NCBI GenBank assembly: GCA_050084515.1
Contig: CM114271.1
Location: 62,001 to 126,000 of the forward strand
Length of the DNA stretch: 64,000 nucleotides
Direction: 5' to 3'
DNA from: Blasia pusilla
Lineage: Eukaryota
Under the pieces are notes generated by a model. That model saw nothing but the letters and a program-made list of their open reading frames with translations, was not told the origin of the DNA and did not search any database. This document shows, in pieces, positions 1 to 53,093 of the stretch (positions are counted from its first letter, which is position 1; every line of letters starts with the position of its first letter). A program made the translations under genes and the position numbers.

Positions 1-2389
1 AAAATATTTCTTGACGCCATTGTAAATTGCAAAGTTATGCATGCTTTGCAACAAACAATGCACAATTTGGAGATGCGAGCAAAAATTTATGGTCAATCTT
101 GCAAAACTTCCATTGCTAGGCATTTTTTAGGGTTAAATTGTTCAAACCCTAAACCAGCCGCCGTCGTCATACTCACCATCAACGGTCAACCATCATCATC
201 GATGGTGAACCATCACCATCAACGTTCAACTTTCACCATCAACGGTCCGCCGTCACCATCAACATCAATGGTCCACCGTCCACCGTCGGCCGCTGTCGCC
301 GCCTACCGCTGCTCAGAGCCGCGTTCCGCCGTTGTCCACCCTTTGGTTGCCATTTTTGCCATTACGAAGTGGAGGGTCTTCCACGAGGACCGTTGATTCT
401 TTCACTTGCGCCGCCATCACGTACTTTGTTTTGGCCGCCACCGTCATTGTAGTTTCGTCATCAAGCAGTGATGGCAGATGACCTCGGGTTATGGTTTTTT
501 AGTTTTCATTTCATGCTGCTATGCTGTAATTGGTAGCCGCTTAACAAAAATCGAGTACCATACCGTGATGCCCGTAGCCGCAACTGGACGCCGATTGGCG
601 TGCCGTGCCGCTCGTGGCCGCACCGTACCGTCTTGACCGCGGAGCCGCTCCTTCACTAAGGATCAGAGCGTGTGAATTGCTGATTGAGGAGGGTGACGCC
701 AAGTGCCGCACTCCATTACCGAGTTCCATGTCATTAAGAGCTATTCCGTGCCGTACTAGACTGCTAGACCTGCACTGTACATCGAGGAGGTTTGAGGGGC
801 GTCAATACGAGAGGAGTCCAACTTTCCGATTGGAGGAGTTGTCTTCACAACCGAGTTGGGGTCGAGATTTGCAGTTGTCGAGGAGCGACATCGATATTAT
901 TGTCAAGTTACCTATTCTGGTCTCTTAAGCTGCACGTGTGAGTGATTTTTGGGTATTGGGAAGTTATTTGGGATATTGTTTCGTGCTGATGCTGAGAGCA
1001 TCAATGATGTATGGATTTAGGGGACATAGACGTGTGTGGGATGTCCAGAGTTAAGGATGGTTTGTCGATGAGATGGTAGATCAGTTGATTTGCCGGACCG
1101 CGCCGCTTGTTGTCGTACAACACACGTCTCACTGAGAGAGTGTAGATTGGGTGCCGCATGTTTAGTTTTAGTGATTGAGGGATGGATCCTGATCAGAGTC
1201 GATGGGTCCTGATCAGAGTTTATGGAGAGTTGGTGATGTTGTTAGTATGCAGGCACGGAGGGCGATGGGAGAAGTGAGTGCGACGATTGCTGATGCTCAA
1301 GAGGGGCATGTGTCGAGCACGTTGTTGGGGGCGGCCACCATTGAGTACCAAGCTCCTTTATTTTCTGCTTCCGATGTTATGACGTTGGGAGGTACGCCCG
1401 CCCAGGTTTTTTAGCTGGCTGCTACACTATGTGAGCGTGGAGTTGGAGTTCTTGCATCACGTTCAAAGGTGATTGTAGAGGAGGTGCCCTTGGAGCGGAT
1501 GCTCGGGCGGTCCACGTCAGATTCATGGCAGGCTCCGGCTGCTAGGATGGCAGAGATGCCCGCTAGACCCGCGATAGAGCGTGCCATGGCTTCTCCTAGT
1601 GTTGTGTTGCTTGATAACCAGGGAGAGGTCTTCCAATTGGTGAGTCACGTAGGAAGAGCTTTTAGTCCGCAGCGTGTCTTATTGGATTCAGGAGCGCAAC
1701 CCTTGATGTTGGGGAATGTGTCATTCAGAGAATTGGGCTTGACGAGAGCCGATGTGGAGCGTTGTCCATTCCGGATAAAGACATCATTGGATGGAGCTAG
1801 TACCACACAGTATATCATCCGACAAGAGGTCATGGTGAGGATTCGCTCGAGACATCCTACAGATGAGTCGGTGGTGCGAGCCAAGGCAATACTGACTGAT
1901 GTAGAGTCCTACGACGTCTTGGTTGGTAGAGCAGTGTCATACCCGATGGGGTTTTCCGTGGATTACTGGGAGGAGTCGGCATCTTACGGACCAGGATGGC
2001 AGTCACGTGATAGGCACCTTAGCTCATTACCCGTTCGATTCATAGGTGCAATGATCGAGCGATGGCCAGGGGAGATGGCGACCTTAGCAGCATTTAGCAG
2101 TGCCATCACTTGGACTAGTGATTTGATTGAGGGACATGTCCATGGAGAGGATACTCCCGTTCCTAAAATTTTTATGGAGAGGAGTGTCATGGTAGCCGCA
2201 TTAGTCCATGGAGGAGAGGTGTTGCTTTGGGGCTCAACTGAGGAGCTTCGTTGCTTAGCCAGTGAGCATGTGCAGACCGTGTGGAGCAAGACGTTTGCAC
2301 TAGAGTGTGACAAGTTAGAGGAACCCTAGGTAGACAGATAGATCCCTTTGGATACCACCCCGATTGTGTGGTGCATCCCAAAGGAGGGT

Positions 2390-3310
2390 ATTCGAGTTTT
2401 GGATCTCTTTGGAGGGATCAACAATGGGTTAGCTGTTGTTTTGCACGCTGGAGTGCGCGTGCAGCAATACGTGTATGTGGAGATTCATGATGTTGCGAGG
2501 CGCGCTTCACTTCACCATGTGGCATAGTTATGCCTCCGTTTTCCCGACTTGTTGTCTGCGTCCGCCATTTAGGGCTACCAAAGTTCCCTACCGAGGGACA
2601 TTTCATTGTTGGGGGCGCATAGATTTGGTCATTGCTGGTTGGCCGTGCTAGGGAAAATCGAGTGTTGGACGAGGTAGCGGGCTAGCTGACACTCGGTCCA
2701 TGTTATTTTGGGAGATGATGCGGATCTTGCAATATTTACAGGAGCATGAGCCTTGTTTTTCAGCATAAATTTTGGAGAATGTGCATTTCGATTGGGCGAT
2801 TCGAGGTCCCGGGTGGTGACGAGTGCACATCAGGTGCGCGCATGGACCGACCCGACAGTGTTGTTAGATACGGCGAGTATAGGTTCTAGAGCACACCACC
2901 CACATCTTTAGTGGACCAACTTGGAACCACATGAGGTGTTGCGGAGGGCTTATGCAAGAGTGGAGTGTCCCTCCGATTTTTTGGTGGATTCTATATTGAT
3001 CCAGCCGCCGATCACAAAAAAGTGAGGCATGATGATCGACCGCCGTTGATTGTGGTCAACAAGATTGGCATGCCACGAGCAGCCTTTCCCATATTGGTGA
3101 GTTTTCCCGCTTCCTATGCATTCAAGGAGGCCAGACCTAGCTTGGTTTGGGATGACCAGGTACAGAGGTTGGTGGAGCCCAACGCCGATTAGCGATAGCA
3201 AGTGATGGGATTCCCCACAGGAGTGACGCTAATATCGTCACTATCGGAGGCATCACGACGTTATGTCTTGGGTCAGGCGATGGATTTGAACTGCTTGACA
3301 TGGATTTTTA
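2390..3310 (+). pseudogene. DNMT3-like C5 cytosine methyltransferase domain within gypsy pol (disrupted)
   Basis: Manual translation gives IRVLDLFGGI (motif I, 2390-2419), YVYVEI (II), IDLVIAGWPC*G (IV, PC at 2643-2648), RSMLFWEMMRIL (V) and ILENV (VI, 2769-2783). It continues GSRAHHPHL*WTNL (VIII), VMGFP (IX) and RRYVLGQAMDL (X). Confidence 0.9.
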
Positions 3311-6120
3311 GCTTATGAGTAGGTGAGCAACCTTGTTTGAGGATGCGAAAAATCATAAAAGTTGTGTTGGTGAGCCCCATGCCTATCGAGACGGTTGAGG
3401 CAGTGGTTCGGGGCAAGGCCCCGAGGAGATCGACACACCAGGGATGATTGGGAGAGACACCCTTGGACTTCTTGGGATGTTTTGCAGATACGCCAGGAGA
3501 TGGTAGCCACAGCATTGAGCGTGGTTTAGGGTACTACAAATGGAGATCCGATTTTGCAGTTGGTTGCAAGGGAGCAGTTGAGTTTTGTTGTCCGAGACAG
3601 GGTTGCATAATAGCAACCACTAATATCCGCGCGGGAGAGTCTTACCGTAGTCACGATGGAGACTTGGGAGCCAAATATGGGCCCTAAGTGACAGGAGGAG
3701 AGTGGCATCGAAAACACCAGTTCCTTAGGAGTTATAGGAGATGTTTTGCATTTAGTATGCATGATTTGGGTACGCTGAAGGGTCCAGGGATCCGCATTGA
3801 GTTGTCGAGTGACACGCCGATCTTCCAACAACCCTATAGGCATAGTGACATGGAGAGGGCTCTAATTCAAAGTAGGAGCCATGACTTGGTTGGAGTAGGA
3901 CTAATGGAGATGTCGCATGGAGAGTATGCATCTGCCACTGTCATGCTCGCCAAGAAGCTACATCCTGGCAAGTGCAAGTTCTTCTATGACCAAATTGAAT
4001 ACTTGGGTCATGCGATATACCCAGGGGGCCTTGGTGTGCAACAGACAAAGGTAGAGGCTATTTCACGCATTCCACACCCTATAGATGTGAGTCAAGTTCG
4101 TGCATTCATGGGATTGGCGAACTTCTATCGATGATACATCAAGGGTTCCGGTTTGATTGCGAAGCCGCTAACCTTGATGATCAAGGTGGATTAGGAGGGG
4201 CACTGGGGGGATGAGCAAGAGAAAGGATATCTGATACTCAAGGACAGATTGATGTCTGCGCCCATATTTAGGAGACTGATCAGGGGGCGTCCTTTCAAAT
4301 TGCATACGGATTGGAGCATGTTGGGGCTTGGAGCCGTGCTCACCCAACATGACGATGATGGTAGAGAGCTTGTGGTGGCTTATGCTAGTCGCTCAAACAA
4401 CGCTGCAAAGTCTAGCTTGTATGAGGGTGAGTGCTTGGCTGCAATGTGGGCTATCGCACATTTCAGATATTATCTATTTGGCATTCCCTTTACCATCATT
4501 ATTGATCATCAGCCACTTAAGTGGTTGATGGAGTCCGACAAGCTTATAGGGAAGCTTGCAAGGTGGGCTCTTTTGTTGCAGGAGTATGACTTCCAGGTGG
4601 TGCATAGACCCAGGACGCTCAACTAGGATGTAGATGGTTTGAGCCGTAACCCATGCCCGAGTCAGCGAGATGCGAATGGAGCTCGTTGGCATAGTGAGAG
4701 TGATGAGGAGTTGGTGCCAGGATAGCTTGCGTCAACCTATTTGGGCTTGTTGGCTATGGAGAGCCAAATTGCTGAGACTTCGATGGCGAGGTTTGATGGA
4801 GAATCCTTAGATCTAGAGGCCGGTGAGGAGACGACATGTGGCCGAGACATTCGACGATGGAGTGGTCTTGGAGTATCTGTGTACTGGCAGCGTCGCGAGC
4901 ACAGTGGATGCGAGAGAGTGGGATCAGATCCTACAACAAGCCAGATGGTTCGGGTGGGAGGGCACACATGTGTTGCGAGTGTGGGAGGATGGTAGAATGT
5001 GTGTAGTGCCTCATCCTTTGTAGAGAGCACGTTTGGTGCGTCATGCCCATGAGAAGTTGGGTCATTTTGGAGTGAAGCGGACGTACAGCTTGCTCCAAAT
5101 TCAGTATTGGTGTCGAGGCATGCACACTAACGTTCAATAGTTTGTTGCCACATGCATGGTGTGTGATCGAGTTCAAGCATCATTCAATGCTTCGACTCTA
5201 GAATTGCATCCACTTCAGATCATGGGTTTAGGTTAGAGATGGAGTTTGGATTTTTCAAGACCTTTGCCTTTGACGGAGCGCCATAGTCGTTATATGGTAG
5301 TCATGGTCGAGCACTTCTTGGAGTGGATAGAGTTGGTTGTATTTCTTGACAAAGCAAGTGAGGGAGTAACGTATGCCTTCCTAGATCAAGTGTTGAGTCA
5401 TTTTGGCACACCACCTAAGGTGTTGACAGACTAGGGTACAGAGTTCCGTGGGGAGTTTCAGGCCTTGTGTGATCAGGCACTGATCGACCACCGCAATACT
5501 TCGCGAGATCATCCTGAGGCGGATGAACTAGCGGAGCGGGTTGTGTAGATGGTGAAGAGAGGACTACGCAAGTATGGTTTGCAGAGAGGTCACCTAGGAG
5601 ATTGGGACCTTCAGTTGCCATGGTTGGCGATGGGATATAGATTTTGCAGGCAGGCATCCTTAACGTCTTTCTCACTGTACTTGTTGCTTTATGGCCGAGA
5701 GCCAGATTTACCTATGGCCATTTGTCGAGATGTTGGTGAGGTGTTGAACGTTGATGACCCTGATGTATGGATGCGAGCATGTTCTTAGAGGGCTCAGTTG
5801 TTTTGGAGAGTGATGCCCTTAGCTTTTGAGAGCTTGGCCATTGCGCAATATCAAGATACGTTGAGGTATGCGACTATCCGGAGGATCATCATCGTGAGAT
5901 TACGTCTACTTTGCAAATGACGGCACCCACGACATTTGAGGTGACTCCAAGGCGCACCATCTTGAGAGTGCGTCAGGTTTTCCCATCCCGTGTTCTCTTA
6001 TTGGAGGGACATGATGGTATGGTTTGGAAGGACCATGTGCGTAATTTTTTGCCATGTCATCTTCGAAACATTGACGGTATAGTTGATCCAAGCTTAGCAG
6101 TAGTTCTTGTAGACTTGTGG

Positions 6121-6258
6121 TGTATGTTGTTTGGCTCCGCCCGTGGTGCAACCACTATGCTAGTCTATGATGGGTGTTCGAGAGTATGGCATATGGCATG
6201 TTTGACGCCACCTCTCACTAGGGTTCCTCAGGGACGATGGATGTGTCCCAGATGTATA
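6121..6258 (+). pseudogene. PHD finger at the C-terminus of gypsy pol
   Basis: CMLF..MLVYDGCSRVWHMACLTPPLTRVPQGRWMCPRC follows the C4HC3 PHD pattern. Two Cys positions read F and Y, each one base from TGT. Confidence 0.88.
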
Positions 6259-8479
6259 TAGAGTAGGTAGTTTTACATTCCGACTTGTGTCTATGACATG
6301 GATGGCAAGAAGGCGACTAACGATGGGGCCACATGAGCACCCGGCCTTCTTGCTCTTAGCGTTCGAGAGATGTATGTCATGGTAGGTACGGATAGATGGC
6401 TATCTGGAGTTAGAGGGACCTAACCACCAACTAGGGGGGCGATTGGGGATATTTTGGTACTTCTTGTCTCGCTTTTTGGATGCCATGAGTTAGCATGGGA
6501 TCGTGCGTACGTGTTTGTGTGTGTATTCGGTGACAACAATGTATGTTGTGTAGCGATGTGTATGCAGACGACACCATGCAAGAATTGAAAAAGTTTTTGA
6601 ATTGTAAAAAGCCAAGTTTTGCTGATGAGGTATCTCAGATATTTTCTTCCAAGAATCATTATTAAAAATTAGTAAGATGTCTATGCGAGAATTGAAAAAG
6701 TGTTTGAAGGTAATTATTTTCATTAATGGTGTTCTCCAAAAGATTCATCTACAAGTGATCTCTCCAAAATATTCATATGCAAGTCATATGGACGATTCAA
6801 ATTTCGAGGATCTTTCCTTTGGCCATCCATTAGAATCTTTGTGATTTAATTTAAAATTAAATTTGATTTGAATATTTTTATTTATTAGATTTTTGTGTTT
6901 TAATGATAGAGTTTCCAATGATAATGTATATAGAAGTTTTATTCATACTCTAGATCATGAGAAAATACATGAGTAGACAAGTAAATGTGGACTTTTTGTA
7001 AAGTGTGACCTGGAGACTTATTAATAATCCTAGCAAAACCCGACCAAGCACGGAATTGAAACAAACAGAAATCAAACATCTTTGCAAGACCTGCCATTAC
7101 TGTGCGAACACAGACTTTTTCCGTGTGCAACCAAGTTTGCTCATCACCTTTACATTAGACCAAAGCTAGAGATAACCTCCTTATGATGGCTTGGATCATT
7201 TGCAACCGATCCCCATGACGAACAATAGGAAACACTTGACAAAAATTACCACCAAATACTGGGTTTTCTAAAATGTTGGTTTCTCAACATCCACTTCTCT
7301 AAGCACCACTAATCTGATCGGCCCCCTTGTATGAGGAGAAGCTTAGATTAATGGTTCTGACTTAGACGTCGAAGGAGTCATAATAATATGACACAAAGTC
7401 CTAAAGGAACCTTTGCTCTTCAAAGCATTTAACCACCACTGGGCAGTTATTTTTCCACTAGTCTTTCAATGTGAGGTTATTTCACCCCGTGAATCGTACA
7501 AACGCCATGGGAAGTCATACAATTGTTGTTTAGACGCCCATGAAGCGTGACTCGCCATGGGCTTAGTTTACTTCTATCTTCGTCATGTCCTTGGCATCTA
7601 GCAATATGGAATAATGAGGCTTCACTCTTATAAGCGTTTCACAATCAGTTGGTGGTTATTCCCCTCCTCTTTTTGGGAGAAAGGCTAGTGAAGTTAGCCC
7701 ATTATCCATAAGTCAACAAGAGCATAGAATTTCACTTGCCAGCCGGCCTACATTCCTTCTCCTCCTTTGGGAGTGAGGTGAGGCTACTAAGGTAATAAAA
7801 GGAAACAAATGCCTACTATGTACTCCATTTTAGACGATGCAAGACTAGCTAGGATGGTTGGTGGCTTAAATCGTGTCCCCTAGGCCCATATATGCATTGA
7901 ATTGTAATACCAGAAGGACTTTCAGGCAGCTTAAAAGAAATTCTATTCTATATTGCAATTATTTGGGTTGGCAAGACAACACGTTTATCCATGAATATTG
8001 AGAACATAAAATCTGAAGTCCTTTCCAAAATTTTACTCTAGGATAACTCCACTTTGATCAACTACCAAACCACCACTACTATTTTCTTTCCCATAGCCGC
8101 CGTGACTAACCGCCACTGGAGCAACATAGGTATTGGCCAAATAAGAAAAATACTCCACCCAATGATCACCACTATTCTCCGACCTCCTATTCTCATGCAA
8201 ATAAAGGCTGCTTCTATTTCCTACCTTCACCCCTAGACTTGATTGCTGGGTTCTAATACAATTGTGTACAACATTTCTTTTTGCCAACTGATCACCACCA
8301 TTATACGCCATATGATCCACACTTTTATTTGCCAACTCCATCATTTTCCTTTGTTGCTCACTCATAGGAGAAGTATATACACCATTGACATCCACTATAT
8401 CACCGCTATTATCCGCAAGATTGATAGTTCTTTGCACTACTTGGGGGCTATGTTTATGGATGTGAGATCTTCTCCTCAT

Positions 8480-10860
8480 GGGTCTTCCAACGTTTATATC
8501 TCATTTTAGATCCTCACAAATATTTTGGTTGTGCCCTTCTCTCAAGCAATGGGAACACCGCTGCCAGCCAATTCTCACATATCCTCTCCCTTTAGGTATG
8601 TCTCCACGTGAAGCAACGCCATCCATATTTATTTCCTAACTTGTTGCATAGTCATGTATTGGGTAGGATATTTTTCCTTGAACTTCTTTTAGTCGTTGCG
8701 ACCTTCTAGGTCCATTTCTAGAATACGCATACAACACGATGATGTCCTCATCGAAAGTTGCAACAGATGGGATAAGGTCATCACACTTTACCCTTGGTAT
8801 ACTATGCTATAGATGCGCTTGATGAAGTAATTGTTCCAAATCAATCAAATAGCTATTATGAATCCATTCCAGTGAACATATCTCAAGCCATTACATGAGT
8901 ACAAGGCCAACATTTATCTTGAAACTCAAGGTAGGAACATTGACACTTAGGACTCAATGAACATGGATTCATGCATATTTGTTGTTGAGATGACAAAAGC
9001 GCTTCATCGAGGAAATCACTTCAAACCCTTGACATATGCTCTCCTTATATCGATATTGAAGTAGGGCATAGGTGGTTACCGAGAAGTTGTATTTATGAGG
9101 GTGGTATGCTTCTAACTTCCTCTCGGTCTAAGTTTTCATCATATAGTTCCAAAACCCGCATGGAATGCCCAAAGGAGGAATGTCTGTAATTGGCTTGATG
9201 GCATAATTTATTACCTCTACTAGATTTGAACTAACTTTGCCATATCGAGGTAAGGAGAGTCCATACCTAGCATACTTTTGTGGTTCTATTTCTCTCGGAT
9301 ATAAGAAATAAGGTCACAAATCTTCTGTATATGATGCCTTTCCATCTCATTCAACCAAAATTCAAACCTATACACAATGAAGACGAATCCTAAAACCTTT
9401 GCCAAAAACCACCAACATTGAGTTTAGCAGGCAATATTGAGATTAGCCGCCAAGACTAAGATTAGGAGTCATGACTGAAATTAGGCACCATGACTCAAAT
9501 TAGACACTATTAAAGTGATGTTCAAAAGATTAAATAATCACTATCCAACACCTAGGATTAGTAGTGTTAGTCAATGATGGGAAATACTTACTTTTCCCTT
9601 GACCTTGCATAGAGGCATGCGATACAATACTCCTTTGCCACTTTTCCATATCTTGATTTCACATTTGCTCATAGATGTTAAGCACACATGCTATATATGT
9701 TATTGGAAAAAATGATATTAACACCATGTAGCAATCCCTTTTTTTATCTGAAATCATAACTATATTTGGATCATTAAGGCTAGGGATTGCAATCTTCAAA
9801 TGTGAGCAAATCATTCTCAATCCTTGTTGCTCTCACGAGGATAGATCCCATACGCTAGAATGATGGTGTTGGCATTCCTTTCCAACATGGAAGCTATGAA
9901 AATTTGTATTGGATATTTCCCATTTTTTGAATGGCATGCATCTAAGCAAGGTTGAACGGAAACAAACAAGTCCGGATATATCCTTCGACATGCCCCACTC
10001 ACACCCGGGCCCGCACCCGAGCCCACCACTTAGACCCGGGGCTGTCGAAGCCCACACCCATTGCGTGGCCCATAGGTTGGGCTCAACATGGGCTAGGGTG
10101 AGAAGGCGGGGGCTCAAGCCTGATTGGGTGCGGGCTTCCCGCGGGCACGTGCAGGCTACCGCGGGAAGGTGTGGGCTTAGAGCTAATTCGGCGTAGGCTA
10201 GGGCGGGCAAGTGTGAGCTTTGGGGGGGTAGGCACAGTCTTGAGGTGGGCAGGCGTGACCCATTCCAAATCCCAAACATCCCATTCATCCTTGAGCCCGC
10301 GGGCTCAGGGAGGAATCGCTTAAACCTACATTCCAAATCCCAAACATCCCATGTAGTGGTTGCAAGAGGGTCAACTTTGTTCACAACGTGAGTGAAGGCT
10401 AGAATCATGCGGAAACTAGCACATTCGACCCTATTTATCCAATTTCGACACTTCTCTTAGCATCTCCAAGCTAGGAAGTACCAAGTGTGCCTTCGGTAAT
10501 TCTGGGCAAGGACATTTATAAGCTTGCCCACAAGAATACTTGGTTGATTCACAACCCTCTATGTTAATACCATAGAAAGCCACTTGGCTTTATGGGTCGG
10601 GCGTGTCCATGTGTGAATACGGCCTAGACATGTGTGCTTTAGGTTACACATCGTTATTTAGTAGGCACTAGACTTCTTGTGTCAATGACATCTTACCCTC
10701 TACTCACAAATCTTCTTGATCTTGGGTCGTCCCTTCTCATTTTCCATACAAAGGTACCTTGAATATTCACCGCGTGCACCATTTCAAGTCATGGTGGGTA
10801 CCTCTTTATCCTTTGATATTTCTCCACGCTTCCTCCTTCTTTCAGCAAAATCCTTTGAGG
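8480..10860 (-). pseudogene. MULE/MuDR-type transposase, decayed
   Basis: LDACHSKNGKYPIQIFIASMLERNANTIILAYGI..ES.KDW (MULE DDE core), MISDKKKGL, SWIM finger CQCSYLEFQDKCWPCTHVMA and knuckle CSHCLREGHNQNIC. Confidence 0.85.
9993..10349. mobile_element. About 355-bp GC-rich insertion interrupting the MULE transposase, flanked by CATG
   Basis: CATG at 9989-9992 and 10350-10353. Removing the insert rejoins MULE-like sequence. It has an internal repeat CATTCCAAATCCCAAACATCCCA x2. The same insertion is in the other two copies (e.g. 37270-37620). Confidence 0.5.
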
Positions 10861-12439
10861 ATGGCAATACCTCAATGAAGGAACTTTTAAGGACAAGGCG
10901 GTATGGCCTCTTGGAATGTTGTGGATGCCATGGTGCGTGTGTACCAATATAATCCCTAGGAATTCTAGGGTCCTCATTTCTTTCTTGTTGCCCCCAAACA
11001 CTTGATGATGGAATGTCCATGCTTTGCTAGCGGAGAACGGCTACTAGAGGGAGTCTATGATTAGCGGTCAAGTGGGTATCCATGCTCTTGGGCAACAAGG
11101 CAATGAGAGACAAAATTTACTCTGATAAAAGCTCGCAATCTTTAGTCGTCGTTGCAGATTGGCTCTCCAAGGTAGGCCCCAATCCCAATGGACTTACATA
11201 TATGCACCTACCATATGTAGCACCCATGAAAGTTGCTATAGCTAGTTGAGAGAGAATTTTTGCTAACAATGTGTCTTGAAGGAATATTTTGGCGGCTTTT
11301 CTCCACCACTACCCCATCGTCTCTTAGACTATCAACTCTTGCATGTACAAGGCATTTTTTCTTTGAATACGCATCCTCTCCCGTCGTGCATTTGACTTCA
11401 TCACACGGGTACACACCATCATCTTTGATCCGCATGCTCATTTTCACTAAATGCTTCCCCTCGATTCTCTCAAGAAACCCTTTCCCTCTTATCTTAGCTC
11501 CATATCTGCAAGTCTGAAGCCAATGCCATTTCTTTGTCCGCACACAATTCTTTTCTCTGACACTAAGAGAGCATCTGATTCAACAATCAAGTGCAAACTC
11601 AAAGTCATCCAATCAGATTGTCTTTGGGTTGCCCAACATGTGAACAACGTTTGTAAGGAGTGGGTCCACAAGCGTATGAGCATCTCAAAAGTTCCACAAC
11701 CCCAAAAGAAAAGACTATACTTGCATTCCAACTTTTGGAATCCGCTGATTGCATTACAAAATATCAGCCTTGGTGATTATCTTGCCGAGGATTCCTTCTC
11801 ACCCGACGCTTAAAATGTAGGCAAGCTACCCTTCCTACCTTTCCAACATTCACACACTCACAACTTTGGAGTAACTAAAGAGTCCATACCTTCTTCTAGA
11901 CTTTATCCTTCAAGATTAGGCTTATTTTTGAATATGGAGGCTTTCCACAAGTCAACCACGGCTTTTGACTCTGACACCAAAGGCCGTCATCCATACACTG
12001 CATATTTCTTCTCATTGTCATCATCACCTATGAATAAGCTTTTCTCATCAAGAGGAAAATGGTATTTTCTCAACTCTCAAGCATTATCTTTGGACGATGT
12101 GCCCAATGTCACTCAAGCTGACTCCCTACCGTCAATTCTTAAAGCATCGAATCTAATGAACATGCCCGCATGAACAATGGGAGAATGATTGAGATTTTTG
12201 AATGATTAGCGGCAGCAAGTAAATTAAATGTGTAAGTAAAATTTAGAGATTAACCTTTGAACCACAACGGTGCTTTCACCCTAAACTATGCTCTCAATTC
12301 TTATCTTGTGTGCTCCCTCCGTACTCTACCGTATCTTATGTGGCATAGTATGAAAGCCTTACAAGGAATGAATTTTTGTGGGGGGTTGTATTAGCTAGGA
12401 AGTTTCCCTCCAAAGTTGCTTAAGAAGTCTCTCAAATTT

Positions 12440-13320
12440 TTCCGCCGTGTGTCTGGCGGCTATTTACTATATCAAGGGTTTGTGGCTATTTTCACTTGGC
12501 AACATTTTTCCGTAGTGTGTCAGGTGGAGTTGGCGGATTTTTAGAGTCTCAAGGACCCAACGTCTTTTATCACTTGGCGGCATTCTGCCTCATTGTGTTC
12601 GATGGAGATAGCGGCTTTTTACAGCATGGGGGACCTGAAGACTAATTTCACCTTGCGGCATCCTAAAAGCATTCATTGGTGAAGTTGACAGCTATTTACA
12701 ATATCGCGGAAAAGACAAATATTATCACTTGGCGGCATTCTTCTACAACGTGTTCATCGGAGCTTGCAACTATTTACAATATTGGAGGCTAGTAACAATA
12801 TCGAGGACTCGACAAATATTATCAATGATGGTTGCAAAAAAATTGACAAGTCCTTCCTTAGAACAAACATGGGTTCCAAGAGGTAGGACCCACACTTTAT
12901 AATCCATGATGGAACGCAAGGCAAGGATAAGTGGAGCAATGAGGGAGGAGGGAGTGGAGGTAGAGGGAGCAAGAAACGGGGGAGTATGGAACACAAAGGC
13001 AAGTAAGGGAAGGAGAAAGAAGGGAAAGGTGGGGCCCATATGGACAAGTCCTTCCATAGGACGGACATAAGTCCACCGACATGGACATGTCCATGGACAC
13101 GGACTTTGTTCACATGCAACCTTGTTATCAATAGGCGGCATTCTACAATAGTGTGTTTGGTGGAGCTATTTTGCCTCTATTTACATAATCGAGAACTCGC
13201 CGAACATTATCACTGGGCGAAATTCTTCTGCACTCTGTTTGGTGGAGCTAGTGGCTATTCACAATATCGGATACCCGGCGGCTGTTATCACTTGGCGGCA
13301 TTCTACGGCAGAATTCTATA
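12440..13320. repeat. Degenerate ~78-bp tandem repeat, interrupted by an unrelated block at ~12830-13115
   Basis: Core CACTTGGCGGCATTCT or variants near 12493, 12571, 12648, 12726, 13133, 13211 and 13289. Confidence 0.75.
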
Positions 13321-13365
13321 TTTATAGAATCCGGAACTTGGTGGTTACCATACGAGAGGAATATT

Positions 13366-13524
13366 GTGAACCAAAGTTGGGCTCTTATCCTAAACTGCAT
13401 TCTTTGTTCTTATCCAGGGGTGAACCATAGTTGGGCTCTTATCCTAAACTGCATTCTCTGTTCTTATCCAGGGGTGAACCATAGTTGAGCTTTCATCCTA
13501 AACTGCACTCCCTGTTCTTATCCA
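13366..13524. repeat. 54-bp tandem repeat, ~3 copies
   Basis: TGAACCA..GTTGGGCTCTTATCCTAAACTGCA..GTTCTTATCCAGGGG starts at 13367, 13421 and 13475. Confidence 0.92.
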
Positions 13525-13868
13525 ATGTGCTACTTCTTACGATATCAATATCCAATTACAAGAAAAAATGGAATCATCTATTCTACTACAATGAAAGAAA
13601 GTTTCTGGCTGCATTAGGGGCGAAGTCTCTGAGGGGGGCCTCTCAAGAAATTTCTTGCGCCCGGAAATCTCTACGGCCTTGCATCCGGAAACCTCCCCTC
13701 ACAATTTATAAATTTCATCCAACAACATCTCATCTCCCAACTCTTTTACGTTCAACTCTTTTACCTCCTACTAGGCGTGGTAGTAGTTTACGTTTCTTCC
13801 TTGTTTTTCATTCCTAATGGGAAAATTTGGCGCCTAAATACATACTCGTGGGTGGGCACTAAAAGACA

Positions 13869-15239
13869 CTAGTAAGGTTCATGTACGATACACGGGAAAT
13901 AAAAAAGTGTTACAAGAGCTAGTATATAACCCGTGAAGGGAAGAGATTAATGATACTACACATAAATTCAAATTTTTTCTTGCTGCCTAGTTACCACATT
14001 TCAAGCAAATAAGTGTTTGCAAGTCAAGAAGGCACTCTCCCATAATCTATACTATTAACGAAACATGGGGGGGTTACTATAAGGGGAAAGAAAGAAAACA
14101 TTGCCTCTCTATAAGGAGTGAAGCACTCTACTATTTTCCGATGGGCCAAGTGAAGCACTCTATTATGAATTCTCATTTGGGATTATTTCCTTTGGGTGAT
14201 CCAATCCAGAAAACTCATGCCATGCCTTCAGTGGTGCTTGAAGAGGGTGGAGAAAATTACCCACCTTTATTCACGTGGGTAATTTTTTATCCACACTCTT
14301 TTTTCTGAAACTTGAGGCTAGAAGTAACTCCTATCCACCCTATTGTGCTTGTTTGGATGGTGTAGTCAATTTGAGGTGGAAAAAGTAAAGTAACAAGATA
14401 AAGGAAGGAACAAGTAGGCACTTTTGAGGAGAAAGCGGAGCGGAGACGATACATGGAGAAAGCGAAGTAGAGTAAATAAATTTATCATTTTGAAGGTTCA
14501 TAGGGAAGGTCCTTCTTCAAGTTTTCGAGTTAGGACTTTTCCTTGTCAAATGGAACTACTTTGTTCCTTAGTGGGACTTATTCCATTGACCATTTTTTGT
14601 GTTGTGGTGGATAGAAGAACATGTGTGGACTTGTCGAGCGTCATCACTTGCCTAAAGGCATATGTGGTCATCCGACTACGCCATATCTACCACATTGTGA
14701 ATCCATAGCTTCCTCCTCCCTCCAATCAAAACTCTCTACTCCATCCCTACAATGTGATCAAGCTCGATCTCTCTCTCTCTCTCTCTCCAACACGAATGGA
14801 CACTACACTCACCTCCGCAATCACACAAGCTCTACGGCCGCGATGAAGTTGGCCTCAATAATTGTTGCGCATTGAACAAAGTGGCACTCCCTCTCTCCCC
14901 AACTCAGAGCCTCTCGCACACACTCCTCCTCTTTCCTTGTCTGTCTCTCTCAAACATGAATGCTCGAGGAAATGTGACTCATCACAAGCATCTCTAAATT
15001 GTCCTGCAGGCTCTCTCGCATTTGAGATGAGGGGCGTGAGCTTCTCATTTCATGGGTCCAAGGCTCTATCATCTCAATATGCCTCATCTTATATGAGTTG
15101 ATCCAATCATAACACAAGGAAGAAAAAGGTAAAAGATATATACAACAGGTAAAACCCTCTCAAAATTTATATCAAATTAAATTTAAATTTTTATTTTTTT
15201 AATTGTTATATTTTGACGCATTCTTACTAGTAATATAGA
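13869..15239 (-). mobile_element. Helitron-like mini-element (~186 bp without its insert), hosting a nested element
   Basis: The minus strand starts A|TCTATATTA and ends CCCGTGTATCGTACATGAACCTTACTAG|T, a decayed hairpin plus CTAG. An uninterrupted homologue lies at ~45800-45968. Confidence 0.55.
14046..15230 (+). mobile_element. Non-autonomous Helitron-like element, 1185 bp
   Basis: Starts A|TCTATACTATT and ends CTTACTAG|T, inserted between A and T with no TSD. The empty site GGCACTCTCCTATAA/TAATATAGATA is visible at ~45944-45970. No clear 3' hairpin. Confidence 0.65.
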
Positions 15240-15479
15240 TATAAACTGCTTTTCCTCCCAAACGTTTAATCCTATTTCAACCCCTAGCGCGGCGCCCAAT
15301 GCTTGCTTCTCCGACCAGCGTCCGGGAGAATAGGGTTTAAGGTTGACGTAACGTTCAATTTCTAAAAGCCGGCTAGATAGCCAACTGGGATTAGAAAACT
15401 TCAACATAAATTCCGGGAGAAACTAGCAAGACCTGTCTCCGACTGCTTGAGGCAAGACCCTCCCCCTAGACCCTATCTC

Positions 15480-18213
15480 TTAGGCCGATCTTAAACGTAA
15501 TACTACTGTGGCTCATTCCACTCAACATGCCAATCATGGGAGGCCTTCAATACAACAACGCCTTCGATGAAGTCTACTTTTGGTGCAGGTTGGTGAGTTT
15601 TCACGTGCAGCTCGAGCATTGGGTCCTCTTTCTCCGACGATTCCAAGTGCGGAAAAAGTGGCTCTCTTAGAAGCTCTTCATCCTCCTTCAAGTGGCGATG
15701 CTCCATCTTTTGTGGAAGACTATACAACGGACCTTGACTTGAAGCTTGACTTGGAGGTTTTCACAAGGGCTTTTCTGCATACTCCTCGCTTATCAGCAAG
15801 CGGGCTATCAGGGATGGTTTTGAGCATCTCCGCGATTGCTTTATCCCAGCAAATTCAGCAAGTGGCTTTGTCTCTCTATATAAGGTGTGTGCACATATGG
15901 CGGCAGGTCGTCTCCCATTCTCTATCTCTAGGCTCTTAGGAGCTTGTTGTTTGTGGGCTATGGATAAGCCTCCTTCAGGTGTGCAACCTTTGGCTATTGG
16001 AGAGGTTTTATATCGCTTGGTTAGTCAATCCCTATGCTTGCAATTACGTCCTCACTTTAGTGCCCACTTATTTCCTCATCAATTTGGAGTGGCAACTCCT
16101 AGAGGTTGTGAGGCTGTGGTGCATGGGATTCGCTCCACTCTTGATATTCATCGAGATTGGGTAGCAATTCAAGTCGATGTGGCTAACGCATTCAATTTAG
16201 TTTCTCATGCAGCCATCTTTGAGGAGTTACGTTGTGCAAGAGGACAACTTGCAAGCCTCATTCCATTTGCTTGCTCCTTCTATGTCGATGATACGCCCAT
16301 TATCTATTCCCATCATGCTACTTCTGGGGAATATAGTATTCTACAATCGGATGATCCCATGGGGGGCCCAGTCTTTGCCATTGGCCATTTTCGTGCCCTT
16401 CGAGCATCAGCGCAAGCATTTCCATCTTGTCTTTTCCCTTCTATTGCTGATGACACTCACATTATAGGTCCTCCTTCTGAAGTGGTTCTTGCTTATACCC
16501 ATTTTGTGGAGCAACTCTCTTTCTTAAACCTTAAAGCCCAACCTAGTAAATGTGGAGTATGGTCTCCTTCATGCCTTCCCTCAACATTCATCCCACCTAC
16601 TCCTGATTTTCCCATCTACATTGAAGGGGTTAGAGTTCTTGGGGTCCCAATTGGCTTCATCGACTATGTCTCAAAGTTCTTCGATGAGACCCTTTTGAAA
16701 GACATGGAATGGCTTAATTTGTTACCTCATCTAGGGGATCCCCAAGTGGCATATGGGATTCTCTCCCAATGATTTCTACAATGTCCTTCCTACCTTCTTC
16801 GCACTTGTCCTCCCACTTCAAGGTTCTTACATCAGTTGGCCTCTTTTGATGCTTCTATCTTGGCAACTTTTGGTCAACTTCTTGGCCTGAATACCTTTGA
16901 GGGAGAGGATGGTGTCTTTGTTTCACGACAAGCTATCTTGCCTATTTCTTTTGGAGGGGTGGGACTGTCCTCCACAGTCGTATCTGCTCCCGCAGCCTTT
17001 TTGGGGAGTTGGGCGTTGGTAGCACCGATTATGGCTTCAAGGTTTCTCCAAGGAGATATACTTATCTTGATGGATCATATCGCCCATGTAGAGGAGGGAG
17101 ACTTCTTATTTCAACAATAACTGAGATCTGCCCGAGCTCTTCTTCCTCTTGCTACACAAGCAATTCTACCCCCTTTTAGTCAATTGATTACGGAAGGGCT
17201 TGATCAACTTCAAGAGCATATCTCCGAGAATCTGCATCAAATCAACTTTTCCAGCATTCTCTCCGAGGCATCCTCTGAAGCTAATTGAGCTCGTCTACGT
17301 TCATGTGCGAGTACCGGAGCGGGGACGTGGCTTACTGCAAATCCTTTTATTCTTCCATTTTGTCTTCCTCGAAGTATAATCTCCAGCTTTGCGGTTACTT
17401 CTCGGACTTCCCCATCCTTCTCTCTTAGATGTGTCAAATTGTGTATGTGGGGATCCCATTGATGCCAAGGGTATCCATATTCTCCGATGTGCATATGGTG
17501 GAGAACGAACGGCCATACAAGATGCGATTAGAGAGGAGGTAGCATCGGTGGCTCATAATGCAAGATACACCGTTGGGCAAGAGCACCTCCACGTCCTACC
17601 TTCAACCACACAAGCAACCTCTCCTCGGAGAATGGATCTTGTTATGTCTCAAGGTGGATTCCGGACACTAGGTGATGTGGTGGTTGGTGATCCAACACGT
17701 TATGACTTGGTGTGTCGAACCGCACATACCAAAGGTTTGACGGCCGAAGTTGCAGCAAGAATGAAGGAGTTAAGTTATGCCTAGACACGCGAGTGATGGA
17801 TTTATTCCTTTAGCAAAGGAAGTATTCGGTCATTTACATGTGTCTTTTGATACTTTCCTAAAAACATGTTCTACCACTCCCTCAAGAATCATCACCTTGC
17901 CCCTTACCTCTCGATAGCTACTACTTATTTTTGGCAATGCATCTCAGTGGCCTTACAACGTGCATAAGCCTTGGCATTGATACATTGTGCAGAGGTGGTG
18001 AGGGGTCGCTCGCCTTGTCGTCCATTCACGTCTGACCAACCACTGGTGTTCTTGTGAGATTTGTCTTAGGCTATCAATCGTGTAGCTCATTGAGCCGATG
18101 TTTGCGTTGGCTTGTTGCCATTTTCTTTTTCATTCTTGTATGCATTTTTTGACTCCTCTTTTGAGTTGTTATTACCTTTCTTTGTCCTCTTCTCACGTTT
18201 ATTTTATAATAAA
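15480..18213 (+). mobile_element. CRE-like non-LTR retrotransposon A (RT plus restriction-like endonuclease), 5'-truncated, decayed
   Basis: GEFSRAARAL, VQPLAIGEVLYRL, HQFGVATPRGCE, QVDVANAFN, IADDTHIIG, GVRVLGVPIG, LPISFGGVGL. Knuckle CVCG..HILRC, then RRMDLV..DVVVGDP..K..Y..FIPLA. T-rich 3' UTR. Confidence 0.88.
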
Positions 18214-27229: not shown

Positions 27230-27678
27230 AATAGCGACCTTGCTGCCCAAGGAGGACAAGAGTGGGACTCTCAAGATGGTGCGCCTTGCACTCACATTGA
27301 ACGTCGTGGGTACCGTGTGTTGCAAGTAGACATAGTCTCCTAATGAAACCTCCAAATAGTAGGTGGATAACCACCTCCTGAATAGTTGCATTCTTCAAAG
27401 TATCTCGATGTTGTGCAATCACCAAGTTCTCAAACGCCATGGGCATCACTCTCAAAATAACTCAGCCCTCGAGAATATACTCGCATCCATAAATCAGGTC
27501 ATCAAGGTTCAACACCTCACCAACATCTCTACTGAATGGCCTTAAAGTAAATTTGGCTCGACCATAAAAAAGCAAGTCACGGTGAGAAAGTCGCTAGGAT
27601 GCTGCATGTTGAATCTGATCCCATCGCCAACCACGGCAATCAAGGTCCCAATCTCTAGGTGACTTCTCTGCAAGCCAT
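27230..27678 (-). mobile_element. Integrase C-terminal fragment related to the DNMT-gypsy family
   Basis: The reverse complement TTGCAGAGAAGTCACCTAGAGATTGGGACCTT..TGGTTGGCGATGGGAT matches 5579-5640. ORF text RVMPMAFENLVIAQHRDTL and TTFNVSARRTILRV parallels 5807-5970. Confidence 0.8.
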
Positions 27679-32549: not shown

Positions 32550-34569
32550 GGAGAGTTAGATATGTTCTCCAGCGTACATTTTGGAGAACGTGTCTTTGTT
32601 GGGAGACACTCGTGCACGTGTGATGACGAGTGTGCATGAAGTGAGGTCTTGGTTAGGACATGTTGTGTTGCTAGATGGAGCGAGAGTTGGATCACGTGCC
32701 CATCGTGCACGACTGTGGTGGACGAACTTGATACCATCAGAGGTACTGAGTCAAGCATATGATAAAGTCCAGAGAGCACCACATCTCACAATGGATACTA
32801 TTTTGGGCTCACGGCGTTGATCTTAGGTGGTGACGCCGGATGATAGACCATTGTTGGCCATGGCCAATAGGGTGGGGGAGTTGAGGGCAGCCTTACCTAC
32901 GTTGGTGAGCTTCCCAACATCCCATGCCTTTTGTCAGGGAGGGCCAGGCATGATTTGGGATGAGGTGACCGGAGCATTGGAGGAGCCTATAGCACATGAG
33001 CGCGAGCGCGCCATGGGGTTTGCTACAAGTACTACGGCGGTGCCATGTATCACAGAGGCATCTCGGAGACAAGTGTTGGGGCAGGCAATGGACCTCAACT
33101 GTCTCACATGGATAGCCATCCTAGGTATGGCTGAGCAGAGACGGATGCGAGTGTCATCCATGTCGTCACGTCCACGAGTTGGACCATTGTCTACAGCGTC
33201 TGTAGAGGCATTGGCTGGGGACGGACGAGGAGAGATAGGCACCCATGGACTTCTTGGGACGTCGTTCGAGCGGAGAGTGCAAAGGCGTCCAAAGTAGCAC
33301 ATGTTCATTTTTTGGATGTAGAGCATGGTGTAGGAGGTCAGAGTGGAGTGGTTGTTGCGGAGATGGCTAGGGTTGCTACATAGCAACCAAAGCCAGAGGT
33401 TGCGTCCTCTCCAAGTGAGATCACAATGGAGACTTGGGAGCATGTGATAGGTCTCAAGTTGATAGGAGGAGAGCGACGGCGAGTTCATAGCTTTCTGAGA
33501 GGGCATGTTAGTTGTTTTGCCTTCAGTATGAGAGACTTGGGTACGCTGAAGGGTCCTAGGATACGGATTGAGCTGGCTAGTGATACGCTGATCTTTCCTC
33601 GACCCTACAGGTATTCTCATATGGAGCGAACCTTGATTCAGAGCAGGATTCAAGACTTGTTGGAGGCAGGCCTTGTGGAGTTATCACATGGGGAGTATGC
33701 ATCTGCCATAGTCATGCCGGCGAAGAAGGATATGTATGGCAATTGGACGGATAGGCAGATGTGTGGAGATTACCGTCCTATCAACCAACAGACGAGGTCA
33801 GATTGGTACGTCATGCCTACTCCTGAGGAGATCTTTGATGGGGTAGGGCATGCAAAGATCTTCAGTACTTTAGATCTCCGTGTTGGCTATCATACGCTTC
33901 CTATCAGGTTGGAGGACCGGGAGAAGACAACATTCTGGGGGATAGATTGGTTTGGGAGAGATTGCTTGTATTAGTGGCGGTTCTTACCGTTTGGGTTGAA
34001 GAATGCACCTGTAGAGTTTTAGAGAGTGATGGATAGGATTCTCACTGGCTTGGATTTTGAACGATGTTACATAGATGATATTCTTATCTTCACTTCCATG
34101 GTTGAGGAGCATGAGTGACACTTGGAGCAGGTGCTTCGGCGATTGTAGTTAGATGGACTGAAGTTACATCCAGGCAAGTGCAGATTCTTTCAAGAGCACA
34201 TTAAGTACTTGGGACACACCATATACTTGAGTGGGTAAGGCGTTCAGCAGACGAAGGTGGAGGCTATTACGCAGATTCCACGCCCTACAAATGTGAGTCA
34301 AGTCCGAGCAACATTGCCAAGGTGAAGTACAACTCCTACGCGGGAGAGTGCTTGGCTGCAGTGTGGGCCGTGGCACATTTCAAGTGCTATTTATTCAGAA
34401 ATCCTTTCACACTTATCAGTGATCATCAGCCGTTGAGGTGGTTGATGCAGTTCGACAAGCTTACAGGAAAGATTGCCATGTGGGCTCTATTACCACAGCA
34501 GTATGAGTTTAAGGTGGTTCATAGGTTAGGTTGGCTGAACCAAGATGCGGATGGGTTGAGTCGTAACCC
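32550..34569 (+). mobile_element. Diverged DNMT-gypsy relative: methyltransferase C-terminal half - RT - partial RNase H
   Basis: YILENVSL, VGSRAHRARLWWTNL, ERERAMGF and RRQVLGQAMDL. Then RT PYRYS, MCGDYRPIN, FSTLDLRVGYH, LPFGLKNAP, CYIDDILIF. Then RNase H ECLAAVWAV..SDHQPLRWL..DADGLSRNP. Confidence 0.92.
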
Positions 34570-34583
34570 TAAACCCTAAACCC
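34565..34583 (-). repeat. Short interstitial telomeric repeat (TTTAGGG, ~2.7 units) at a rearrangement junction
   Basis: The + strand reads AACCC-TAAACCC-TAAACCC exactly between the gypsy RNase H end and the inverted MULE segment. Confidence 0.75.
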
Positions 34584-45968: not shown

Positions 45969-45983
45969 TAGTAAGGTGCCCAT

Positions 45984-51300: not shown

Positions 51301-53093
51301 GATATTATCTATTTGGCATTCCCTTTACCATCATTATTGATCATCAGCCACTTAAGTGGTTGATGGAGTCCGACAAGCTTATAGGGAAGCTTGCAAGGTG
51401 GGCTCTTTTGTTGCAGGAGTATGACTTCCAGGTGGTGCATAGACCCAGGACGCTCAACTAGGATGTAGATGGTTTGAGCCGTAACCCATGCCCGAGTCAG
51501 CGAGATGCGAATGGAGCTCGTTGGCATAGTGAGAGTGATGAGGAGTTGGTGCCAGGATAGCTTGCGTCAACCTATTTGGGCTTGTTGGCTATGGAGAGCC
51601 AAATTGCTGAGACTTCGATGGCGAGGTTTGATGGAGAATCCTTAGATCTAGAGGCCGGTGAGGAGACGACATGTGGCCGAGACATTCGACGATGGAGTGG
51701 TCTTGGAGTATCTGTGTACTGGCAGCGTCGCGAGCACAGTGGATGCGAGAGAGTGGGATCAGATCCTACAACAAGCCAGATGGTTCGGGTGGGAGGGCAC
51801 ACATGTGTTGCGAGTGTGGGAGGATGGTAGAATGTGTGTAGTGCCTCATCCTTTGTAGAGAGCACGTTTGGTGCGTCATGCCCATGAGAAGTTGGGTCAT
51901 TTTGGAGTGAAGCGGACGTACAGCTTGCTCCAAATTCAGTATTGGTGTCGAGGCATGCACACTAACGTTCAATAGTTTGTTGCCACATGCATGGTGTGTG
52001 ATCGAGTTCAAGCATCATTCAATGCTTCGACTCTAGAATTGCATCCACTTCACATCATGGGTTTAGGTTAGAGATGGAGTTTGGATTTTTCAAGACCTTT
52101 GCCTTTGACGGAGCGCCATAGTCGTTATATGGTAGTCATGGTCGAGCACTTCTTGGAGTGGATAGAGTTGGTTGTATTTCTTGACAAAGCAAGTGAGGGA
52201 GTAACGTATGCCTTCCTAGATCAAGTGTTGAGTCATTTTGGCACACCACCTAAGGTGTTGACAGACTAGGGTACAGAGTTCCGTGGGGAGTTTCAGGCCT
52301 TGTGTGATCAGGCACTGATCGACCACAGGAATACTTCGCGAGATCATCCTGAGGCGGATGAACTAGCGGAGCGGGTTGTGTAGATGGTGAAGAGAGGACT
52401 ACGCAAGTATGGTTTGCAGAGAGGTCACCTAGGAGATTGGGACCTTCAGTTGCCATGGTTGGCGATGGGATATAGATTTTGCAGGCAGGCATCCTTAACG
52501 TCTTTCTCACTGTACTTGTTGCTTTATGGCCGAGAGCCAGATTTACCTATGGCCATTTGTCGAGATGTTGGTGAGGTGTTGAACGTTGATGACCCTGATG
52601 TATGGATGCGAGCATGTTCTTAGAGGGCTCAGTTGTTTTGGAGAGTGATGCCCTTAGCTTTTGAGAGCTTGGCCATTGCGCAATATCAAGATACGTTGAG
52701 GTATGCGACTATCCGGAGGATCATCAGGGAGATTACGTCTACTTGCAACAGACGGCACCCACGACATTTGAGGTGACTCCAGGGCGCACCATCTTGAGAG
52801 TGCGTCAGGTTTTCCCATCCCGTGTTCTCTTATTGGAGGGACATGATGGTATGGTTTGGAAGGACCATGTGCGTAATTTTTTGCCATGTCATCTTCGAAA
52901 CATTGACGGTATAGTTGATCCAAGCTTAGCAGTAGTTCTTGTAGACTTGTGGTGTATGTTGTTTGGCTCCGCCCGTGGTGCAACCACTATGCTAGTCTAT
53001 GATGGGTGTTCGAGAGTATGGCATATGGCATGTTTGACGCCACCTCTCACTAGGGTTCCTCAGGGACGATGGATGTGTCCCAGATGTATATAG
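48326..53093 (+). mobile_element. Duplicate of the protease-DNMT-RT-RH-INT-PHD gypsy pol (DNMT ~49236-50156, PHD ~52953-53090)
   Basis: Same motifs, same stops and same RT deletion as 1469-6261. Confidence 0.93.

Follow-up and report, generated by a model that had tools for sequence, protein, structure and literature searches.

What does a histone-reader-type domain do at the end of a retrotransposon that also encodes a DNA methyltransferase (DNMT), and do the two belong together? The question is raised by a 64,000-nucleotide (nt) stretch of the genome of Blasia pusilla (assembly GCA_050084515.1, contig CM114271.1, positions 62,001 to 126,000 of the forward strand; hereafter, the window), which contains a Ty3/gypsy retrotransposon of the long terminal repeat (LTR) class. 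An initial annotation, made from the sequence alone, had described this element as bearing both a methyltransferase and a PHD finger, and both are indeed present, as remnants: a C5 DNMT of the DNMT3-like family at 2342..3315 and a PHD finger at 6121..6258, each on the + strand. We identify the latter, with high confidence, as the decayed C-terminal PHD finger of a dead copy of this retrotransposon. Among relatives, the finger and the DNMT are inherited together, and what the finger might do there is weighed below.

A decayed PHD finger closes the coding region

The PHD-like sequence at 6121-6258 comprises 46 residues in frame 1, and the Pfam scan suggested with the initial annotation matched it to PF00628 (E value, 4.4e-9; 36.7 bits) well above the gathering score of 24, as it did the whole 143-amino-acid frame at 5830-6258 (33.3 bits). 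The likeness is far beyond chance, since that frame matches relatives at E 1e-40 to 5e-44 in a protein search. The finger had been described as a Cys4-His-Cys3 (C4HC3) type, which the window copy no longer is: 6 of the 8 zinc ligands are kept, ligand 2 having become Phe and ligand 3 Tyr, whereas all eight are present in 35 of 35 aligned relatives, each with Cys at both of these positions. As a consequence of the two replacements, the PF00628 match of the window copy covers profile positions 9-47 or 10-47 only (1-47 in relatives), and the first of its zinc sites cannot form.

One codon and a stop (6259-6261) follow the finger, which is therefore the last coding domain and occupies the site of the chromovirus chromodomain. 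To this extent, the description of a PHD ending the polyprotein was accurate; the polyprotein itself has gone, as the PHD lies in frame 1 and the integrase core in frame 2, stops interrupt the integrase, reverse transcriptase (RT)/RNase H and DNMT parts, and the RT core has lost about 436 nt.

About 20 residues upstream of the finger (window 6043-6069) lies a Pro-Cys-His-Leu-Pro stretch that was kept in nearly all relatives (alignment A3), its Pro and Cys being invariant in 36 sequences. A zinc knuckle at this place was considered and dropped, as only one Cys and one His of the stretch are conserved.

Position and conservation of the finger in relatives

A search of the 143-residue frame against 1.84 billion representative proteins returned 2,429 matches at E ≤0.001, 394 of them at E ≤1e-10, and most spanned query residues ~30-143 in one stretch, that is, the integrase C-terminal region and the PHD as a unit. 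Pfam scanning found integrase followed by PHD in all 25 long matches scanned and, in a second set, in 12 of 13 proteins; the thirteenth, P0198, ends inside the integrase core. A metagenome scan with the relative P0160 alone returned no relative, and one with alignment A2 returned loci L001-L079. One of these (L007) encodes RT, RNase H, integrase and PHD in one frame, with a single stop in 1,022 codons and its end 12 codons past the last Cys. Two others (L022 and L054) are 9- to 10-kb elements flanked by LTR pairs of 84-88% identity, in which the PHD ends ~240 nt before the 3′ LTR; no repeats were seen at L023 and L012. In relatives, then, the PHD stands in frame behind the integrase C-terminal beta-barrel, as the last coding domain before the 3′ LTR, and not absent or out of frame, the finding that had been named as one that would speak against the initial annotation.

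Across 17 relatives with 43-71% identity, seven of the eight ligand columns (six Cys and the His) show no variation. Among metagenome loci with the C-terminal region, 10 of 32 have all eight ligand positions, and the others are decayed or cut like the window copy. The nearest named relatives are liverwort proteins of 65-69% identity, from Calypogeia fissa and from Marchantia polymorpha (MARPO_0060s0038 and Mp_7g09570; here P0004 and P0192). The Marchantia proteins are annotated as “hypothetical” or “PHD-type domain” and are fragments of this retrotransposon family, one of them mixing a DNMT piece with an integrase tail and PHD.

Liverwort-type sequences end 1-12 residues past the last Cys. Chlorophyte-type relatives (P0040, P0055, P0062, P0089, P0105, P0110, P0119 and P0153) have a conserved block of ~60 residues after the PHD, with weak, sub-threshold matches to the Tudor family PF21743 (E 0.0098 and 0.096), which could be a second reader domain. 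No Chromo family match was found in any Pfam scan of the window or the relatives, and the best cluster in the Protein Atlas (Chlorophyta integrase plus Chromo, 0.78) fell below the meaningful level.

Co-occurrence of the finger with a DNMT

The DNMT remnant of the window is spread over three frames with at least 6 stops; one fragment (2652-2765) matches PF00145 at E 0.017, and residues 3-203 of P0160 map onto 2396-2983 at E 4.8e-12 (tblastn). Co-occurrence of PHD and DNMT across the family, which had been put forward as a check, was borne out at both the DNA and the protein level. A DNMT lies upstream of RT in 20 of 20 family loci with at least 1,600 nt upstream of RT, and 23 of 25 DNMT-bearing loci with at least 1,000 nt beyond the integrase core have the C-terminal region or PHD. 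The remaining two, L017 and L024, were considered as PHD-less elements and rejected, both being 3′-truncated copies. Gypsy-like loci lacking the PHD region had a DNMT in 0 of 28 cases.

At the protein level, 125 stored proteins span RNase H to PHD. The DNMT lies between RNase H and integrase in 94 and before RT, as in the window, in 3; the other 28 have a short RNase H-integrase linker, and their gene models are too short upstream to show a DNMT. All 97 informative proteins thus carry a DNMT, with no DNMT-negative protein among them. This set is biased, as one query contained a DNMT; in an unbiased subset of 18 proteins, RNase H is followed by the DNMT and then the integrase in 15, and the other 3 are uninformative. 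Many of the loci are related copies from few samples, and what the counts document is joint inheritance within a single lineage rather than separate events.

Within pol, the DNMT has one of two positions: before RT in the window and in liverwort-type elements (P0160, P0198 and L003-L054), and in the order RNase H-DNMT-integrase in P0051, P0097, P0144, P0181 and others, an order found among named matches in the chlorophytes Haematococcus lacustris, Tetrabaena socialis and Chlamydomonas eustigma. The DNMTs of the two placements are homologous (29-42% identity over ~330 residues), and their sequences point to relocation or recombination within pol. Judged by sequence, the family enzyme is DNMT3-like: among solved structures, the best matches to an intact DNMT frame in a window-like relative (L009:8738-9694) are DNMT3A, 3B and 3C (E 1.8e-11), compared with E 4e-4 for M.HhaI and E 1.8e-3 for a DRM-type entry. 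Some chlorophyte-type polyproteins (P0154, P0245 and P0265) also have a G-patch domain (PF01585), which in P0154, the only one of them scanned, lies between DNMT and integrase.

Likeness of the finger to readers of the histone H3 tail

With either the single sequence or a 36-sequence profile, the best 60 solved relatives were all PHDs, including those of CHD4, KDM5A/5B/Lid (PHD1), PHF12, PHF21A/BHC80, KAT6A/B, DPF2/3, KMT2C/D, ATXR5, WSTF, BAZ2A/B, UHRF1/2, AIRE, ORC1b and Rco1. BHC80, AIRE, CHD4, DPF3 and TRIM24 are described as binding histone H3 unmodified at lysine 4 (H3K4), and the hallmarks given for such readers are the lack of an aromatic cage, a hydrophobic residue before Cys3 that sits between R2 and K4 of H3, and acidic residues before Cys1 (PMC3241642). 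In the family alignment, a hydrophobic residue precedes Cys3 in all 36 sequences (Leu in 24, Ile in 6, Val in 3, Ala in 2 and Phe in 1), and at least one of the six residues before Cys1 is acidic in 27 of 36. The aromatic-cage Trp of readers of trimethylated H3K4 sits two residues before the His ligand, a position held here by a small residue (Gly, Ala, Thr or Val) in 36 of 36.

The PHD fold was recovered in an AlphaFold2 model, which was made for the relative P0006 and not for the window copy. The model (mean predicted local distance difference test [pLDDT] score, 77.8) consists of a five-stranded beta-barrel, a less confident linker and the PHD, with block-mean scores of 74-96 for the barrel region and 81-95 for the PHD (residues 121-172). 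The latter superposes on the PHDs of ATXR5, BHC80, UHRF1, DPF2/3, BAZ2A/B and CHD5 at 0.6-1.4 Å over 46-54 columns, and the Foldseek matches include structures solved with the H3 tail (ATXR5, UHRF1 and DPF3). By sequence and modeled fold, the finger is thus of a type that binds the H3 tail, and it is best read as a predicted reader of the unmodified tail (H3K4me0 type).

Copy number and transcription of related copies

Contigs from two DNA runs with the same organism label gave thousands of pieces on 4800-6460, mostly 90-99% alike, which makes this a multicopy family. A stranded RNA-seq run with the same label, sampled to ~6%, gave 987 reads on the same interval: 4 were at least 99% like the window copy, 64 were 95-99%, 479 were 90-95% and 440 were below 90%. 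First mates lay 10-148 deep per bin on the minus strand and 0-11 deep on the plus strand, a bias expected of sense transcripts in most stranded libraries; in the PHD bins, the depth was 100-132 versus 3.6-5.3 on the other strand. The ligand-3 codon encodes Cys in 95 of 96 RNA reads and in 4,227 of 5,159 and 16,229 of 39,147 of the contig depth in the two DNA runs, respectively. Related copies with a better-preserved finger, as judged from the ligand-3 Cys, are therefore transcribed, and the window copy is at most marginally represented.

Anatomy and decay of the window copy

The copy is dead, its frames broken by stops and shifts and its RT core lost, yet its former domain order can be read as protease, DNMT3-like methyltransferase, RT, RNase H, integrase and PHD. 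The order of the pol enzymes, protease-RT-RNase H-integrase, and the domains themselves are of the gypsy (Metaviridae) type (Pfam and tblastn), and the best match of the relative P0160 among solved structures is Ty3 Gag-Pol (E 2.2e-94). The most upstream recognizable part is, on translation, a protease-like region of pol with a DSGA motif (1415..2326, + strand, frame 2). Its RVP_2 match is weak and below the cut-off (E 0.22); the corresponding part of a duplicate described below (48263-49295) resembles regions upstream of the DNMT in L009 and L023 (tblastx). Downstream of the DNMT remnant follows an RT remnant (3688..4131, + strand; tblastn and blastn) with its catalytic core deleted at a junction near 3957/3958. 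There, the P0160 alignment jumps from residue 558 to 695 (tblastn), a 436-nt gap opens against L023 (blastn), and the Pfam scan of the window element found no RVT_1 match.

The RNase H domain (4195..4623, + strand; PF17917, E 2e-31) is followed by the integrase (4841..5872, + strand, frame 2), in which the H2C2 zinc domain (5024-5137; PF17921, E 4.5e-10), the core (5237-5431; rve, E 0.0021) and the start of the C-terminal region can be recognized; residues 1028-1378 of P0160 align to it at 47% identity across 6 in-frame stops (tblastn). The integrase C-terminal beta-barrel and linker (5830..6120, + strand, frame 1) are shifted relative to the core, the change from frame 2 to the PHD frame being due to a short deletion and small indels near 5881-5916; RNA reads with a loose end behind 5881 carry letters that are missing from the window copy. 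A purine-rich tract at 6433..6449 (+ strand) is, by its sequence, probably the polypurine tract that closes the internal region, and DNA similarity to L009 and L023 stops inside it, at position 53274 of the duplicate (equivalent to ~6442).

In-frame stops number 6 in the integrase match, 3 in RT/RNase H and at least 6 in the DNMT remnant, at least 15 in all. The PHD-frame alignment, with 0 stops over 125 aligned residues, is the sole part of the copy without any. At the other end, similarity to relatives starts only at ~1400, and gag and the 5′ LTR are not recognizable. No LTRs of the window copies were found by searches for direct repeats, self-blastn or sensitive blastn of 6440-7800 against 40001-48500 and 1-2400; the copy is either 5′ truncated or too decayed to show them.

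Duplication and other family members in the window

The finger had been reported at a single place, but it stands in the window twice: a second, identical copy of the PHD remnant was found by blastn at 52953..53090 (+ strand). It lies inside a segmental duplication with a period of ~46.8 kb, in which window 1-17120 recurs at 46879-64000, so that the whole first 17 kb is present twice. Positions 1-7000 recur at 46879-53832 with 97.5% identity (blastn), which is the identity over the element, and many 300-nt blocks of the duplication are 98-100% identical.

Two further pieces of the family were recognized. A diverged, 3′-truncated member with DNMT, RT and RNase H (32572..34576, + strand; tblastn with P0160, blastn at 73-75%, RNase H by Pfam) has no integrase or PHD left, and an integrase C-terminal fragment of another member (27245..27678, - strand; blastn at 77%, tblastn) ends before the PHD. 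A Pfam scan of 31 other open frames of the window found only the RNase H of the 32572-34576 copy and another RT, and no host gene. That RT (PF00078, E 4.6e-9) lies in a 340-codon open frame at 15750-16769 (+ strand), repeated near 62560-63580, and belongs to another retroelement. Tandem repeats were seen at 173-272 (four 20-nt-spaced copies of a 40-nt unit) and at 13366-13524, also 60170-60328 (54-nt-spaced copies of a 105-nt unit).

What the finger may do

Taken as a whole, the evidence is probably best explained by a decayed C-terminal integrase PHD that is the PHD counterpart of the chromovirus chromodomain. Its place speaks for a tie to the integrase: the PHD is fixed behind the integrase barrel, while the DNMT is found at two places in pol. 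As to mechanism, we favor tethering of the integrase through the PHD, a proposal that we hold to be evenly balanced. The PHD would tether the integrase-cDNA complex to nucleosomes without H3K4 methylation, away from active promoters, and the DNMT3-like enzyme would act separately on the element's own DNA. Histone binding, its specificity and an effect on the choice of integration site are what we infer here from likeness to known readers.

Several points weigh against this proposal. For this family, binding and targeting are argued from sequence, a model and analogy, and the likeness to readers of unmodified H3 is a class resemblance, not a test of specificity. The acidic cluster is weak: just 9 of 36 sequences have more than one acidic residue ahead of Cys1, and the liverwort-type sequences nearest the window mostly have none or one. 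One Foldseek match, Ehd3, was solved with monomethylated H3K4 (H3K4me1), and for the two-domain arrangement, the top matches were Tudor-PHD cassettes (PHF1, MTF2 and UHRF1) with low template modeling (TM) scores, 0.24-0.29 for PHF1 and UHRF1. The RNA reads come from other copies, 88-99% alike, only the 4 of 987 mentioned above reaching 99%, and clustering of family copies in the window can stem from duplication and from selection after insertion.

The finger could instead serve the DNMT, bringing or activating the DNMT3-like enzyme on H3K4-unmethylated nucleosomes much as the ADD domain does for animal DNMT3, so that the element or its surroundings become methylated after insertion; such coupling is close to the “self-contained reader-writer module” that the initial annotation had in mind, and we consider it unlikely. 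It would suit the co-inheritance of PHD and DNMT without an informative exception (20 of 20 loci and 97 of 97 proteins), the proximity of the family enzyme to DNMT3A/B/C among solved structures, and the report that retrotransposon DNMTs methylate CG de novo (PMC5890265). In chlorophyte-type elements, moreover, the DNMT is directly N-terminal to the integrase-PHD part and could share one mature protein with it. In the window architecture, however, RT and RNase H stand between the DNMT and the integrase-PHD part, and the order protease-DNMT-RT-RNase H-integrase-PHD, together with Ty3-like processing of pol, would place DNMT and PHD in different mature proteins. The fixed place of the finger, set against two places for the DNMT, ties it to the integrase, and co-inheritance within one lineage, counted over many related copies from few samples, is no proof of functional coupling. 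Somewhat less probable still is that the finger is not a histone reader but a zinc-binding module for other interactions, its partner being a host protein, an element protein or nucleic acid. A few PHD fingers do bind nonhistone proteins (PMC3241642), the acidic patch of H3K4me0 readers is weak in liverwort-type sequences, and the conserved Pro-Cys-His-Leu-Pro stretch and the adjoining structured barrel suggest a larger composite surface; yet the best 60 solved profile relatives are all PHDs of chromatin proteins, several Foldseek matches were solved with the H3 tail, and all 36 sequences have, before Cys3, the hydrophobic residue that in such readers lies between R2 and K4 of H3.

It is very improbable that the 143-codon frame represents a gene of the host, or a PHD protein that arose from the element by exaptation. 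The frame is the only stop-free part of the copy (0 stops in 125 aligned residues), and similar fragments are annotated as the Marchantia genes MARPO_0060s0038 and Mp_7g09570. Against this, with two zinc ligands lost, no first zinc site can be formed; given how often stops occur in the integrase (6 per ~350 codons), chance would yield an open run of this length (143 codons) about 1 time in 11; the frame lies in line with a decayed pol, and the two were duplicated as one; and the Marchantia models are fragments too, with DNMT and PHD pieces mixed in them.

Significance and relation to known systems

Retrotransposons with a PHD, Gypsy-DNMT3 elements and LTR elements combining a reader with a writer are known already. 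What is worth following here is the family-wide pairing of a DNMT3-like enzyme with a PHD and its two architectures, the window copy itself being inert. In one Gypsy lineage, found in green algae and bryophytes, a domain of the histone-tail-reader type on the integrase is inherited along with a writer of the DNMT3 type. This lineage, with members that are still transcribed, offers a natural system in which to ask if retrotransposons are led to H3K4-unmethylated chromatin by a PHD, in the way that chromoviruses are led to H3K9-methylated chromatin by a chromodomain, and if such targeting is connected with methylation by the element's own enzyme. Gene models of Marchantia annotated as “PHD-type domain” can be flagged as element fragments.

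A broader scenario is speculative, and we doubt it more than we credit it: a Viridiplantae-wide Gypsy lineage, from chlorophytes to liverworts, may have co-inherited a DNMT3-like enzyme and an H3K4me0-type PHD since before its hosts diverged, the DNMT moving at least once within pol, with the PHD placing new copies in H3K4-unmethylated chromatin and the DNMT methylating them, an analogue of ADD-DNMT3. If this were true, the acquisition would be far older and broader than the single event in the Klebsormidium lineage described in 2018.

That event concerns KnitGypsy-Dnmt3 of Klebsormidium nitens (de Mendoza et al. 2018, PMC5890265), in which a DNMT3 lies inside a Gypsy pol; a streptophyte Gypsy-DNMT3 is also named in a 2026 preprint (bioRxiv 10.64898/2026.05.21.726589). 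KnitGypsy-Dnmt3, compared here by description, with no K. nitens sequence among our named matches, resembles the present family as a Ty3/gypsy element of a streptophyte lineage with an unrearranged DNMT3-like domain in pol. It differs in that its acquisition is proposed to have occurred in the K. nitens lineage (PMC5890265), whereas here DNMT and PHD occur in liverwort-type and chlorophyte-type elements, at two pol positions. The main text and three supplements of that paper do not mention a PHD, and the terms “KnitGypsy,” “Marchantia” and “PF00628” are absent from the same three supplements; Figure 4c and the largest supplement, which lie outside this check, may show a PHD. Likewise, a literature search that did not cover these two items found no text linking a PHD to Gypsy-DNMT3 elements.

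According to earlier work, PHD fingers are widespread accessory domains in retrotransposons and may guide their insertion (PMC6673714, PMC8557442, PMC9940879, preprint 10.1101/2021.11.30.470311). The green-algal examples (REM1 and Gypsy-7a_cRei) and the CR1-like long interspersed nuclear elements (LINEs) with a PHD share with the present family a PHD as an accessory domain of the polyprotein, and this PHD is proposed to reduce harmful insertions (PMC9940879, PMC8557442, PMC6673714). Gypsy-7a_cRei of Chlamydomonas, with its PHD, is reported to insert in intergenic regions 2.6 times more often than expected; unlike the present family, it is described with no mention of a DNMT (0 occurrences of “DNMT” in the text searched; PMC9940879). 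The EpiLTRs (bioRxiv 10.64898/2026.05.21.726589) are alike in uniting a histone reader and DNA-methylation writers in a single LTR element, but their reader is a chromodomain, their DNMT is sister to DNMT4, they carry an additional adenine methyltransferase (DAM), and their hosts are Cymbomonas and Euglena.

Chromoviruses (MAGGY, Tf1/Sushi and Tcn1) belong to the same superfamily and have the same domain order, with a small histone-reader domain at the end of the integrase that is proposed to steer integration by chromatin state (PMC3605345, PMC6673714, 10.1101/2021.11.30.470311). The present family departs from them in having a zinc-binding PHD in place of the chromodomain, in also carrying a DNMT, and in its expected ligand, which from sequence would be the unmodified H3 N terminus rather than methylated H3K9 (H3K9me). 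Animal DNMT3A, DNMT3B and DNMT3L resemble the family in that a DNMT3-type catalytic domain is encoded with a PHD-type finger of the kind that reads unmethylated H3K4. In animal DNMT3, the ADD lies next to the catalytic domain of the same protein and gates its activity, whereas in the present family the two domains lie apart in the polyprotein, and the finger, a plain single PHD, is attached to the integrase.

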